Source of the DNA: Desulfatiglandales bacterium | GTDB taxonomy: Bacteria > Desulfobacterota > DSM-4660 > Desulfatiglandales > Desulfatiglandaceae | Reading direction: 5' to 3' | Assembly: GCA_963662465.1 (NCBI GenBank) | Contig: OY759599.1 | Location: 2,016,001 to 2,080,000 of the forward strand | Length of the DNA: 64,000 nucleotides | In this document: positions 21,001-24,000 of the stretch, one piece after another | How positions within the stretch are numbered: the first letter of the stretch is position 1 | Layout: each line of letters starts with the position of its first letter | Program-made: the position numbers

Positions 21001-24000
21001 TGACAGCACCTCGGCCAAAGCGCCCGGACGATGGCCCAGAAAAAATAACAGGGTGGTTTTGTCGCATCCGGTGGGTTGGGGCTCACTGTTTCCCAACACC
21101 AGGAAACGGGTCACATTATGGGGCTCGTCTTCGATATCTTCACTGAGAAGCTGGAGCCCCAGGGTTTCCGCCAGAAAACGGCTGCCCAGAGCAGCGCCAT
21201 TCGGATCATCGGATGCCATTTTGCCCGCAAGGGACGTGCTTTCCACCGACTCAAAGGGAACCTCCGGCAGATGGCTTTTGAGCCATGAACGGCACTGGGC
21301 CAACGGCATGGGATGGGAATAAAGTCTTCTGATGTGTTTCAGGTCTTTATTCCGGGCCATCAAACTGAGCCTGATCCGGTGGTAATACTCTCCACATATT
21401 TTCAGATCAAATTTGTTAAACAGATCCCAGATCCCGGAAACTGAGCCTTCCAGAGAATTTTCCACCGGAATCACACCCTGATGACAGTGCCCCTTTTCCA
21501 CGGACCCGAAAACATCTTCAAAGGTCCGGGACGGACAGAATTCAGCGGAACTGCCGAAAATGGAAATGGCGGCCTGGTGCGAAAAAGTTGCCTCGGGACC
21601 CAGGAAACCGACCTTCAACGGCCCTTGAACCGCCCGACCGGCGGAAATGATCCGGCCAAAAATATCCCGGATCGCATCCGGCGTAAGACGTCCGCGGTTA
21701 TTTGCAGCCATCCGGTCAAGGATCTCTTTTTCGCGCACGGGATCAAAAACCGCCATCCCCAGTTTTTCCTTGATCCGTCCGATGGCGGCGGCCGCGTCAA
21801 GCCGCTCCCCCAAAAGCGACAGTATTCCGGCGTCAATCGAGTCGATATCCCGACGCCGACAGCCCAGCTCCCGCCAATCGGCATTTTCATCCTTTTCGGA
21901 CGGCATTCCTGTTGTTTCTTCTGTTTTCATGTCCATATCCACCCTTTAATTCACGCAAACCCTTGACGCCCCACTTCCTCTCAAATCCCCAGATCCTGCC
22001 CACCGGCTCTGGCCCGCAAATAATGATCCGCCAGAACCAGCGCCACCATAGCTTCAACCACCGGCACAATGCGGGCAACCGCCGTCACGTCAAATCTGCC
22101 GGTCAATTCCAGGGTCGCGTCCCGACCCTGCCGATCAATGGTTTCCTGGGGCTTCATGATGGAAGGAATGGGTTTCACCGCTACCCGAAGCACCAGTTCA
22201 TCGCCGTTGGAGATACCCCCAAGGATGCCGCCGGACCTGTTGGAAGCAAAACCCGTGGAACGGATGGGGTCATTGTTTTCAGAACCCTTGAGACGGGCCG
22301 CCTCAAACCCCGCGCCCACCTCAACCCCTTTTACGGCGCCAATAGACATGAGAGCTTTAGCCAGCTCCGCATCCAGCTTGTCGAACACGGGTTCCCCCAA
22401 TCCGGCGGGACAACCGGATACGCAGACTTCCACCACACCACCGAGACTGTCTCCGTCTTCCCTGGCCCTTTCGAGTGCCGCCAACATGGGTTCCACCGCA
22501 TCCGGGTCGGCACAATAGAGAGGATTCCGGGAAATAACGCCCGGGTCCATCCGTTCAGCTCGAATCCCCCCCAACGCCAGGGTATAGGCAAGAATGCGCA
22601 TATGGAAGGGCGCCAACACTTTCCGTGCCACCACCCCGCAGGCCACCCGAGCGGCGGTTTCCCGGGCGGAAGCCCGACCCCCTCCCCGGTAATCCAGATG
22701 ACCAAATTTCTTGAAGTAGGTGTAATCCGCATGCCCCGGCCTGAACAGGTCCTTCAGTACCCCGTAAGGTTTGCTTTTGACGTCATGGTTTCCCACCAGC
22801 AGGGTTAACGAGGTTCCGGTAGTGCGCCCTTCAAAAACGCCGGACATGATTTCCACCCGGTCTTCTTCCGCCCTGGGCGTCTCAAAAGAAGACCGCCCCG
22901 GCCTGCGCCGTTCCATCTCCCCTATGAAGTCAGCGTCCGTAAGGCGAATCCCTGAAGGACACCCGTCGATAATGGCCCCCAGGGCTTTTCCGTGGGATTC
23001 GCCAAATGTGGTGATTTTAAATGCCTGTCCAAATGAATTTCCGGCCATGAGATCCTCTCCGGTTATGAGTTTAATGCCGCCGTGCTGACAGTCCCCTGTG
23101 GTTGTCCGCTATCCCGTATGGGCATAACCGGCTCAGGCATGGATTGTATGATTTCGTATGCCACCGCCTCGGGGGATTGCTCATCCGTATTCACAACATA
23201 ATGGCAGGCCCGTTCATAAAGGGGGGCTCTCTCACTCAGGAGCTGTCCGATCTCAGCCATCGGGTTTTCCCCGACCAATCCCGGTCGAATTCTGCCCGAG
23301 TTCTCATCTTGGGTCATCCGATCCCGAATGGTCGATATGCTCGTCCGCAACCAAACGAGCCAGCCCGTTTTTTTTAAATTCCGCACATTTTCCCAATCCA
23401 GCACCGCACCGCCACCGGTGGAAATAACCCGTTGATCATCATTTGAAATGGATCGAATGATAATTTTCTCCAGCATTCGAAAGGCATCCCAGCCGTTTTC
23501 GGCCACATAATGGGGAATGGTGGACCCAACTCGCCTCTCCAAAAGCTGATCCGTATCCACCAGTTCCAACCCCAGATGATTCGCCAGGGTTTTCCCCACC
23601 ACACTTTTTCCGCTGCACCGATACCCGATTAAAACAATATTCATGTCAACACCCGAAACATTTCACAAAAAAAAGCCGCGGAAGCTTTTGAAGGCATCCA
23701 CGGCTTTGAAAAATGACAAAAAACAGCATCTCAGACCATGGATGGACCTCCAAAATAATAATAATAAAAGCCCTGCCACGATCGATTCGTAAACATTATT
23801 TCGCTGTTTCCTTTTGTCCAAGTTAAAGAATGAGAAGCAGTCAATGACCACCACCAAAGGTGGTGGCTTGAATTAATGCACCTGGAAGGTGCATGGTACC
23901 TATTCTATTTGAACAATTTACCTTGCGTCACATCGGCATCTTTATCTTTACTATGCTGCCATTTTACATACTTTTTGATCCGCTCTTCATTTAAGCCTAC

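Follow-up and report, generated by a model that had tools for sequence, protein, structure and literature searches.

The closest described counterpart of the system analyzed here is aroR-aroF of Corynebacterium glutamicum, in which a leader peptide containing both Phe and Tyr codons precedes a DAHP synthase operon and mediates ribosome-dependent attenuation of the common pathway (Neshat et al. 2014, as summarized in a section of PMC11802643). For Desulfovibrio vulgaris, a terminator-based attenuator has been predicted before aroA'-aroB'-pheA-aroF-tyrA-trp, for Vibrio before aroA(I-alpha)-tyrA (both PMC1173090 Table 7), and for Shewanella before aroF (PMC2659441 Table 3); a possible pheL of Desulfobacterium autotrophicum is noted in PMC3082878. 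On the enzymatic side, Methanococcus maripaludis makes aromatic amino acids from aryl acids via indolepyruvate oxidoreductase (Porat et al., as cited in part of PMC4162585), and the phenyllactyl-CoA dehydratase FldABC is described as catabolic in the portion of the literature relayed by PMC13416013. We compared these systems with an aroK operon from Desulfatiglandales bacterium (GCA_963662465.1; 8.16 Mb, hereafter G000), encoded in a 64,000-nucleotide window spanning positions 2,016,001–2,080,000 of contig OY759599.1. Coordinates below refer to this window unless a contig position is specified, and all window features lie on the minus strand.

The operon comprises aroK (shikimate kinase, 23063..23644; Pfam SKI, E 4.4e-43), aroC (chorismate synthase, 21981..23048; Pfam E 7e-133), pheA (chorismate mutase-prephenate dehydratase-ACT, 20803..21942), aroD (type I dehydroquinase, 18229..18897), aroE (shikimate dehydrogenase, 17426..18232), and aroA (EPSP synthase, 16136..17407). 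A preliminary description had these genes right but missed a PAS-domain histidine kinase (18894..20780) between pheA and aroD, the stop of which overlaps the aroD start and which also occurs in a relative, G010. In that relative, aroC and pheA are further separated by a second attenuator plus a gene for ADH synthase, and pheA is followed by a DHQ synthase II gene; all of these are absent from the G000 operon.

Upstream of aroK is a leader peptide ORF of 21 amino acids, MFTNRSWQGFYYYYFGGPSMV (23731..23796), whose start, frame, and stop are kept in 19/19 aligned leaders. The control codons, F-Y-Y-Y-Y-F, occupy 23769-23752. A Shine-Dalgarno-like purine run (23804..23815) positions AGGA ~12 nt 5' of the ATG, a long spacing, and most congeners have a similar run. 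Segment 1, the anti-antiterminator arm (23768..23782), is the partner of segment 2 (fold, -22.2 kcal/mol); segment 2 (23736..23751), at the end of the leader ORF, can pair with either segment 1 or the 5' arm of the terminator. Segments 3 and 4 form an intrinsic terminator 22 nt 5' of the aroK start (23667..23704; hairpin at 23704-23675, U-run to 23667), with 10 consensus pairs, none broken in 19 sequences and three showing two-sided change. Across 19 relatives, the 2:3 antiterminator helix is paired in 93.6% of cells and displays two-sided change in 4 of 9 pairs, a level reached in 0/500 shuffles. The 1:2 helix folds in all three leaders of this kind in G000, with covariation not above shuffles (reached in 59/500).

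Predicted folds depend on where the ribosome sits. For transcripts ended within the terminator and a stalled-ribosome footprint ending at the control codons, the 2:3 helix amounts to -21.3 kcal/mol for aroK and to -18.9 and -19.1 kcal/mol for the aroG and g03354 leaders described below; with the footprint at the leader stop, the corresponding values are -0.5, -3.6, and -2.8 kcal/mol. On full-length RNA from leaders of the stand-alone GNAT genes (see below), the terminator wins at equilibrium in 7 of 8 loci, and the switch must therefore be co-transcriptional. A contig from RNA run X5 covers a similar leader and the aroK start in a relative, informing neither level nor termination. We assign a probability of about 0.88 to the reading that these leaders are ribosome-mediated transcription attenuators responding to the charging of tRNA-Phe and tRNA-Tyr and, in some cases, also tRNA-Trp. 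Anatomy and conservation are read directly from the genomes, while stalling and read-through are drawn from the established mechanism. A ribosome would translate the 21–25-codon leader, trailing RNA polymerase. When charged tRNA is plentiful, a ribosome sitting on the stop codon would cover segment 2, the terminator would form, and transcription would end 5' of the gene. When Phe or Tyr is scarce, stalling on the F/Y run would leave segment 2 to pair with the terminator 5' arm, and the polymerase would continue.

The leader family was traced with a model (R1) trained on aroK leaders alone, such that its matches are F/Y-enriched by construction and kin are not independent. Applied to G000, R1 returned three matches (E 2.3e-24, 8.5e-11, and 1.2e-4), exactly the sites for which aromatic-rich leaders with terminators had been claimed: aroK, the aroG operon (leader at contig 3252216, GTG start), and g03354 (leader MYCKLTGFFYFRFMGTPPPVD at contig 3650958). 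All three ORFs and terminators are present. The aroG operon, formerly listed as aroG-aroB-tyrA, contains those genes plus an aminotransferase gene preceding tyrA. R1 matches occur in 122/149 genomes of the order and 35/151 of the phylum sample, and unbiased sampling of aroK loci gave a leader with terminator in 22/30 (one degenerate); a scan of named genomes found one locus only. Earlier counts of the aroK leader in 8/9 congeners and the aroG leader in 7/8 relatives rise to 9/9 congeners with an aroK match and 9/10 relatives, the single miss (G008) having been rechecked. Support for the proposal that the common shikimate pathway is run by attenuation extends well beyond the genus, and 2:3 covariation, stall-dependent folds, occurrence in 122 genomes, and codons matching the target all argue in its favor.

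Leader codon content tracks the product of the downstream gene. Among distinct strong R1 matches, 152/159 have at least four F/Y/W in eight codons, and the start codon lies no more than 22 codons from the control run in 81/82 aroK-type leaders. TTT (360) and TAT (279) are the commonest control codons, and TTC (59) and TAC (66) are used far more often than CTT (18), ATT (11), or TCT (14). Leaders of pheA are mostly pure Phe runs, 4/5 lacking Tyr versus 17/152 of the others. In the two dehydratase leaders the run is Tyr-only; a Trp leader precedes an indolepyruvate-oxidoreductase-like gene, and the trpE and trpD leaders consist of Trp runs. Targets of the family include aroK/aroC, both DAHP synthase types, archaeal-type ADH synthase, pheA, and an aminotransferase. 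In relatives, the same family precedes genes for indolepyruvate oxidoreductase (IOR)-like subunits, ADP-forming acyl-CoA synthetases, an aminotransferase, and a HadB-like dehydratase with its activase; elsewhere in the phylum, aryl-acid salvage genes are targets, and CoA ligases are also under these leaders. A single homologous leader family has probably been copied before many aromatic-supply genes and tuned through codon content. In G000, Phe/Tyr leaders would control the aroK operon, aroG-aroB-aminotransferase-tyrA, and g03354, with Trp-run leaders controlling the trp operon and a second DAHP synthase. The G000 main dehydratase operon is without an attenuator, and no leader was seen upstream of pheS or of the genes orthologous in G000 to the dehydratase and aminotransferase that are attenuated elsewhere.

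The third G000 target, g03354, had been called a PqsE-like thioesterase. This holds for residues ~1–300 only; the 854-aa protein as a whole is a three-domain fusion in which this part is followed by a GNAT domain and a kinase-like domain, and the halves are separately attenuated. The PqsE-like part is distant from its best solved-structure matches (PDB 7tz9 and 2q0i; residues 14–302, E 8.5e-20) but has a metallo-beta-lactamase fold with HxHxDH and further His/Asp/His metal ligands, invariant in nine homologues. The GNAT domain (residues ~387–517) aligns with AAC(2')-Ia over 136 residues (Z 11.4, rmsd 3.0) and retains an intact acetyl-CoA-binding R-x-x-G-x-G motif, with R, G, L, and G kept in 95% of 71 sequences. 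For the last 250 residues, the best match is WaaP (Z 6.8, below 8; rmsd 4.6, 156 aligned; best Foldseek E 2.6e-3), and the top 50 structure matches comprise 43 kinases or phosphotransferases and six NIS synthetases. Compared by eye with the kinase consensus, this part appears to have a conserved Glu at the expected Lys, a W-D-L-x-x-N loop (Asp kept in 77%), and a chain ending in I-D-F. The C-terminal 514 residues match no Pfam or NCBIfam family, and the Atlas returned only their own cluster and GNAT/kinase-fusion leads below 0.9. Permease and transporter genes flank g03354, and its neighbors include no recognized quinolone-synthesis genes.

A link between the hydrolase and aromatic supply, formerly based on 3/8 loci, proved much stronger. 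An R1 match lies directly 5' of the fused gene in 14/15 genomes (in the remaining one, the gene is at a contig edge), and a model-free test of the stand-alone GNAT half found a leader at 34/43 held-out loci versus 5/900 random genes. A second hydrolase subtype has a leader in 9/9 genomes, although its antiterminator shows no covariation above shuffles (91/500). Among stand-alone orthologous hydrolases, 11/23 have no clear leader, including all five of family f4. Since one leader family heads the aroK operon, the aroG operon, and g03354, the last is very probably a starvation-induced member of the Phe/Tyr regulon.

What g03354 contributes to that regulon is less certain. We tentatively favor a role in which the PqsE-like domain hydrolyzes aryl-2-hydroxyacyl-CoA produced by a HadB-like hydratase, pulling aromatic acyl-CoAs toward arylpyruvate and on to Phe/Tyr; the GNAT-kinase-like half may target the same acyl-CoA pool. 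The hydrolase repeatedly adjoins enoyl-CoA hydratase, dehydratase, and activase genes; in eight genomes it lies directly 5' of a HadB-like dehydratase, and in G139 the two sit in one attenuated operon. Supply of methylglyoxal for the ADH-synthase route was considered as a hydrolase role and set aside because G000 keeps g03354 yet lacks ADH synthase and DHQ synthase II. More speculatively, and in our estimate rather improbably, these attenuators would point to an anaerobic route, not yet described, from aromatic acyl-CoAs to Phe/Tyr. Such a route would begin with cinnamoyl- or coumaroyl-CoA, possibly derived from benzoyl-CoA by reversed beta-oxidation, and proceed through C2 hydration, catalyzed by a radical enzyme of HadB/FldB-like type and its activase. 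Release of the aryl-lactate by the PqsE-like thioesterase would pull the reaction, and an FAD-linked 2-hydroxyacid dehydrogenase and an aminotransferase would complete the pathway. The GNAT-pseudokinase protein, never found together with a stand-alone hydrolase, would serve the same step despite being unrelated to it. If the route is true, aromatic-degrading sulfate reducers would build amino acids from the very compounds being degraded.

A somewhat unlikely alternative accepts the attenuators but makes g03354 a regulator, or a brake on the CoA pool, instead of an enzyme of supply. Its GNAT half would acetylate some protein (e.g., an aryl-CoA ligase) under a nucleotide-binding pseudokinase, aryl-CoAs would be drained by the hydrolase, and aromatic catabolism would thus be slowed during Phe/Tyr shortage. 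The intact GNAT fold and acetyl-CoA-binding motif agree with this, as do a kinase-like fold that appears to lack canonical catalytic residues and the mostly monocistronic appearance of GNAT-half genes. Genomes with the stand-alone hydrolase (23) and with the GNAT half (56) do not overlap among 134, where 9.6 would be expected, and this too fits two means to one end. However, the hydrolase neighborhood of hydratase, dehydratase, and activase is pathway-like, and a brake on ligases would oppose the placement of CoA ligases under these same leaders.

At the aroK locus, a 630-nt IS200-type element between the leader and its predicted promoter had gone unnoticed (23840..24469, ends uncertain by 1 nt). 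The element carries tnpA, a Y1 transposase gene (23905-24414; Pfam Y1_Tnp, E 1.8e-36), and is present in four copies in the genome, 98.9–100% identical and each following TTTAT. The site is uninterrupted in G010. One contig of sequencing run X1 spans the right junction with zero differences; no IS-free allele was seen, and no contig in the sequencing runs joins across the element. Beyond it is a promoter-like site (24469..24497), with TTGACA at 24497-24492, a 17-nt spacer, and a weak A/T-rich -10-like hexamer up to the IS junction; relatives without the IS have the same TTGACA ~70 nt 5' of where the leader starts. A consensus scan of the window missed both this site and the real aroK terminator. 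Transcription of aroK in this strain would first have to cross the element, which raises the unlikely prospect that the attenuator is a relic here, bypassed by a new start or silenced by a stop within the element, while remaining functional in relatives. The element does occupy the -10 region and has end hairpins, and a weak terminator-like match lies at 23852-23836. Against this, the -35 hexamer, spacer, and -10-like hexamer remain at the left junction, the hairpins of the element have no U-run on the transcribed strand, and the leader, ribosome site, and terminator are undamaged, with scores as high as in relatives.

A protein or small-ligand switch (TRAP-like or riboswitch-like) with an incidental short ORF is very improbable. 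The RNA helices are more conserved than the peptide sequence, as would fit such a switch, and the frame test was uninformative: synonymous/non-synonymous counts of 33/177 in the leader frame versus 22/189 and 42/188 do not favor that frame. However, start, frame, and stop persist in every aligned leader, codon content follows the target product, and there is no match to an Rfam riboswitch or T-box; Rfam gave zero matches in the window at gathering score, and leaders of five loci matched no Phe/Trp-leader or T-box model at E up to 5. As for chance, 5,347 upstream regions of the genome contain 485 short-ORF-plus-terminator units, of which eight have at least five F/Y/W in eight codons: the aroK, aroG, and g03354 leaders, the Trp leader before the second DAHP synthase, and four others. 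The aroK antiterminator duplex (-22.2) is the strongest among the 485; that of g03354 is modest (-13.5), equaled in strength by 23/485 background units. That F/Y runs are by-products of T-rich intergenic DNA beside ordinary terminators is scarcely credible and already largely refuted, for although TTT and TAT dominate the control codons and four other aromatic-rich units exist, the 34/43 versus 5/900 contrast and the 2:3 covariation speak against it, and co-oriented upstream genes would not account for one family of terminators standing before aromatic-supply genes across 122 genomes.

In place of the repressors used by E. coli, copies of a single codon-tuned leader would let a lineage of sulfate-reducing sediment bacteria run nearly all of its Phe/Tyr supply, from the classical and archaeal-type entries through the common pathway and the Phe branch to uptake and aryl-acid salvage. 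Leader codons thereby act as a label for the supply product of the downstream gene. The label would assign the 514-aa GNAT/kinase-like family (present in 71/149 genomes), the PqsE-like hydrolase, and the radical dehydratase to Phe/Tyr metabolism, providing short substrate lists for assays.

The literature search found no leader-peptide attenuator on aroK/aroC or indolepyruvate oxidoreductase, or in this order, although surveys in subscription journals may cover deltaproteobacteria; the main-text portions of PMC4833913 and PMC2965389 considered here likewise contain nothing on such leaders. Within the literature searched, the claim that no aroK/aroC attenuator is in print stands for leader peptides but not more broadly, as Table S8 of PMC2965389 lists T-box leaders ahead of chorismate synthase in Bacillus and, before aroK, 5' terminators that carry no annotation. 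The Bacillus T-box likewise couples tRNA charging to a terminator on a common-pathway operon (PMC2965389 Table S8), but it binds uncharged tRNA directly, whereas the present sensor would be a translated leader. The tabulated D. vulgaris, Vibrio, and Shewanella predictions also concern common-pathway genes, in one case those of the archaeal-type route of a deltaproteobacterium; as tabulated, they are terminator-based and confined to single loci, with no leader-peptide family, codon tuning, or salvage link described. PqsE of Pseudomonas aeruginosa, a 2-aminobenzoylacetyl-CoA thioesterase, shares its metal ligands with g03354, but the PqsE type is a stand-alone protein of ~300 aa in a quinolone-synthesis operon, whereas g03354 is a GNAT/kinase-like fusion under predicted Phe/Tyr attenuation. 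In contrast to catabolic FldABC, a dehydratase run as a hydratase with a thioesterase for amino acid supply is our conjecture rather than a described pathway. E. coli pheL-pheA, trpL, and pheM-pheST share the four-segment anatomy of 1:2, 2:3, and 3:4 pairing plus U-run, yet, in the sections of PMC11802643 and PMC3082878 that treat them, they govern terminal branches or a synthetase, with the DAHP synthases under TyrR/TrpR; the Rfam leader models match none of the present leader sequences. AroR of Corynebacterium has a Phe-Tyr-Phe motif and, in the account excerpted from PMC11802643, responds to Phe and not Tyr; the Tyr-only control runs found here would be a clean test case for Tyr sensing by a leader peptide. 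Compared with AroR, the present family has five to seven aromatic codons and recurs several times in a genome; its loci include aroK-aroC operons as well as ADH synthase, salvage genes, and an orphan enzyme. The mechanism is already known; the breadth of the regulon is new.

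The source genome, a single 8.16-Mb contig (C1; window C1:2016001-2080000), carries aromatic-rich leaders before aroK, the second DAHP synthase operon and g03354, the latter two at contig positions 3252216 and 3650958, as the preliminary description had it. We put the probability that these three Phe/Tyr leaders are genuine and fit classical ribosome-mediated attenuation, a mechanism predicted from their sequences, at about 0.88. They are members of one order-wide leader family. The 21-codon aroK leader (23796-23731, minus strand) lies upstream of aroK, with its terminator (23704-23667, minus strand) between leader and gene. 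The minus-strand operon, whose genes are separated by short gaps or overlap at their stop and start codons, reads aroK, aroC, pheA, PAS histidine kinase, aroD, aroE, aroA; the genes originally proposed are all there, and the kinase between pheA and aroD had been missed. This kinase gene (18894-20780), whose stop overlaps the aroD start, is also found in G010, the closest relative. The second operon likewise contains aroG, aroB and tyrA, but in the order aroG-aroB-aminotransferase-tyrA.

Folded without a ribosome, each leader forms a 1:2 (anti-antiterminator) helix plus the terminator (3:4). For transcripts cut inside the terminator, a ribosome footprint ending at the control codons gave pairing of segment 2 with the terminator 5' arm (−21.3, −18.9 and −19.1 kcal/mol for aroK, aroG and g03354, respectively), and a footprint at the stop left almost none (−0.5, −3.6 and −2.8 kcal/mol). 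In full-length RNA of leaders before stand-alone GNAT genes, the terminator still prevailed at seven of eight loci. Across 19 aligned aroK leaders (from 20 extracted at that point), none of the terminator's 10 pairs is broken. The 2:3 (antiterminator) helix is 93.6% paired, against 30-50% for slid registers, and shows two-sided changes in four of nine pairs; 0 of 500 shuffles scored as high, although kinship by itself can outscore such shuffles and one of the aligned sequences served to define the helix. Covariation of the 1:2 helix did not rise above shuffles, nor did a test of synonymous changes distinguish the leader frame.

Scanning 5,347 upstream regions of the genome yielded 485 short-ORF-plus-terminator units, eight of which have at least five F/Y/W within eight codons. 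These are the three claimed leaders, one Trp leader ahead of a type I-beta DAHP synthase, and four more. R1, a model built from aroK leaders only, matches none of these four; among candidates passing its pre-filter, its matches in the genome are the three claimed sites only. The same kind of control is used elsewhere in the genome, since a Trp-run leader also heads the trp operon.

A protein search detected aroK in 33 of 41 genomes, yielding 30 loci. Leader and terminator are present at 22; these include all nine congeners (previously eight of nine), members of several other families and a single degenerate leader. Four of the eight loci lacking a leader come from one family (f4), and aroK sits behind another gene in most of the eight. 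The aroG leader, formerly counted in seven of eight relatives, is kept at 10 of 11 loci, own locus included. Across the order R1 finds matches in 122 of 149 genomes, and in a sample of the phylum in 35 of 151. Two aroK leaders (L017, L209) are degenerate, with helices kept and most F/Y codons gone. Tandem attenuator pairs precede a single gene or short operon (hydrolase, aminotransferase or ADH synthase) at L175, L190, L103, L100, L167 and L098. Many relatives (L124, L127, L128, L129, L133, L135-L137 and others) have the trp and aroK operons arranged head to head, trpE being immediately upstream on the other strand.

The strain shows several further features. A 630-nt IS200-type element (23840-24469) separates the conserved TTGACA promoter site from the aroK leader; because it is inserted in the same orientation as the aro operon, the operon promoter would also drive transcription of the transposase gene. 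Three further near-identical copies occur at contig positions 41164, 1717378 and 3848827, and G010 has no such element at the corresponding promoter. Just upstream of the aroK promoter lies an ISL3-family element (24512-26247; transposase 24824-25924, plus strand), for which contig depth of ~5x the single-copy level in sequencing run X1 suggests several copies. Within its aro operon (L120, G010:C4:1646000-1657000), G010 holds a second attenuator, ADH synthase and DHQ synthase II. Compared with G010 at 21942-21981, the source genome has neither the archaeal-type ADH synthase nor DHQ synthase II nor an internal attenuator, and keeps two DAHP synthases. Long GA dinucleotide runs lie within similar intergenic elements at C1 ~3251920-3251950 and near 8045100, one element being just upstream of the aroG promoter.

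The target tally, which is not a census, covers 100 regions around listed R1 matches; 88 weaker matches fall outside it. Among the strong matches listed in the order, targets are aroK (82), hydrolase (23), ADH synthase (16), DAHP synthase (I-beta 8, I-alpha 6), aroC (7), aminotransferase (6), pheA (5), radical HadB-like dehydratase (2), trpE (2), ABC binding protein (1) and GNAT half (1); one further match has an acyl-CoA ligase downstream. The 27 loci outside the order comprise ADH synthase (8), aminotransferase (3), aroK, DAHP synthase, hydrolase, ADP-forming acyl-CoA synthetase and indolepyruvate oxidoreductase (IOR)-like subunit (2 each), ABC binding protein and trpE (1 each) and four unassigned. 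Leader codon content tracks the target gene: Tyr is absent from four of five pheA leaders versus 17 of 152 others, both leaders before HadB-like dehydratase genes are Tyr-only, those before trp genes consist of Trp runs, and a Trp leader precedes one IOR-like gene. Because related genomes are not independent and R1 is biased towards F/Y, this contrast between targets weighs more than the totals. Outside the order, Trp or Tyr/Phe leaders precede IOR-like subunits and Tyr-run leaders precede ADP-forming acyl-CoA synthetases (L378, L391, L369, L388), a pattern that reads as attenuated aryl-acid salvage.

The hydrolase-leader link is strong, and g03354 very probably belongs to the predicted Phe/Tyr regulon. 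Of the 149 genomes, 15 encode the fusion, 56 have the GNAT half by itself and 23 have the orthologous hydrolase by itself; no genome has both stand-alone forms. The tie, drawn earlier from three of eight loci, is strengthened by an R1 leader immediately before the fusion gene in 14 of the 15 genomes and by a held-out, model-free test of stand-alone GNAT halves, which found leaders at 34 of 43 loci versus 5 of 900 random genes (47 loci less four with short flanks; two are duplicate copies in one genome). The GNAT loci examined first had leader and terminator in 11 of 12 cases. A second model, R2, matches 62 of 149 genomes, once each, picking up five of the nine GNAT-half loci missed in the held-out test and, in 12 of the 23 genomes with a stand-alone hydrolase, lying ahead of that gene. 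In R2-type leaders (L044-L055; one copy per genome), segment 2 starts at the leader stop codon and pairs with the terminator loop and 3' arm. A more distant hydrolase subtype has leaders in nine of nine genomes, tandem in two cases. In G033, a relative in which the hydrolase was said to follow the Trp-attenuated DAHP synthase directly, it is indeed the next same-strand gene, ~890 nt away.

The PqsE-like assignment of g03354 applies to residues 14-302, for which PqsE is the best solved-structure match (E 8.5e-20) with metal ligands retained; the other 514 of its 854 aa have no family match. The predicted model (pLDDT 79.5) contains a GNAT fold (Z 11.4), and the last 250 aa, modelled separately (pLDDT 87.1), resemble the protein-kinase-like fold with middling scores (Z 6.8); clear catalytic residues were not found in this part.

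An attenuator opens when its amino acid runs short, so the gene it controls is expected to help provide that amino acid, and we tentatively suggest that the thioesterase may act in Phe/Tyr supply. The hydrolase directly precedes a HadB-like dehydratase and activase in eight genomes, six with an enoyl-CoA hydratase in front. An FAD-linked oxidase pair adjoins this cluster in G078, a single attenuated operon holds hydrolase, activase and dehydratase in G139, and a 3-hydroxyacyl-CoA dehydrogenase/hydratase follows in G033 and G138. Such clusters could turn cinnamoyl-type CoA esters into aryl-lactates and these into arylpyruvates. Hydration of these esters is energetically unfavourable, and thioester hydrolysis would pull it forward. 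The available text of PMC13416013 describes phenyllactyl-CoA dehydratase in the catabolic direction, and that of PMC4162585 an aryl-acid/IOR route. Counting against a supply role, 91 of the 149 genomes have the dehydratase, usually as part of an operon with a ligase gene, and that operon has no leader in the source genome. A regulatory or CoA-brake role for g03354 is only slightly less likely than the supply role. A novel salvage route to Phe/Tyr is rather unlikely. An unattenuated operon at C1:5139734-5149161 encodes thiolase, CoA ligase, activase, HadB-like dehydratase, an FAD-oxidase/Fe-S fusion and, by eye, a malonyl-CoA decarboxylase-like protein; its core order is kept in most of 30 loci compared.

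Among known systems, the accessible parts of the literature treat aroR-aroF, pheL and trpL attenuators (PMC11802643), Shewanella aroF, listed as an attenuator (PMC2659441), a possible pheL in D. autotrophicum (PMC3082878) and the D. vulgaris aroA' operon (attenuator Table 7, PMC1173090). The earlier claim that no aroK/aroC attenuator is in print stands for the leader-peptide type: our search, with subscription journals mostly outside its reach, found none on aroK/aroC or in this order, and the accessible text and supplement of PMC4833913 hold nothing relevant. It fails for attenuators at large, as the accessible part of the PMC2965389 supplement gives a T-box before Bacillus chorismate synthase, along with unannotated terminators before aroK/aroL and a short ORF preceding shikimate dehydrogenase in a Desulfovibrio. 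The mechanism is already known; what is new is how widely the regulon extends and that it includes an orphan enzyme.
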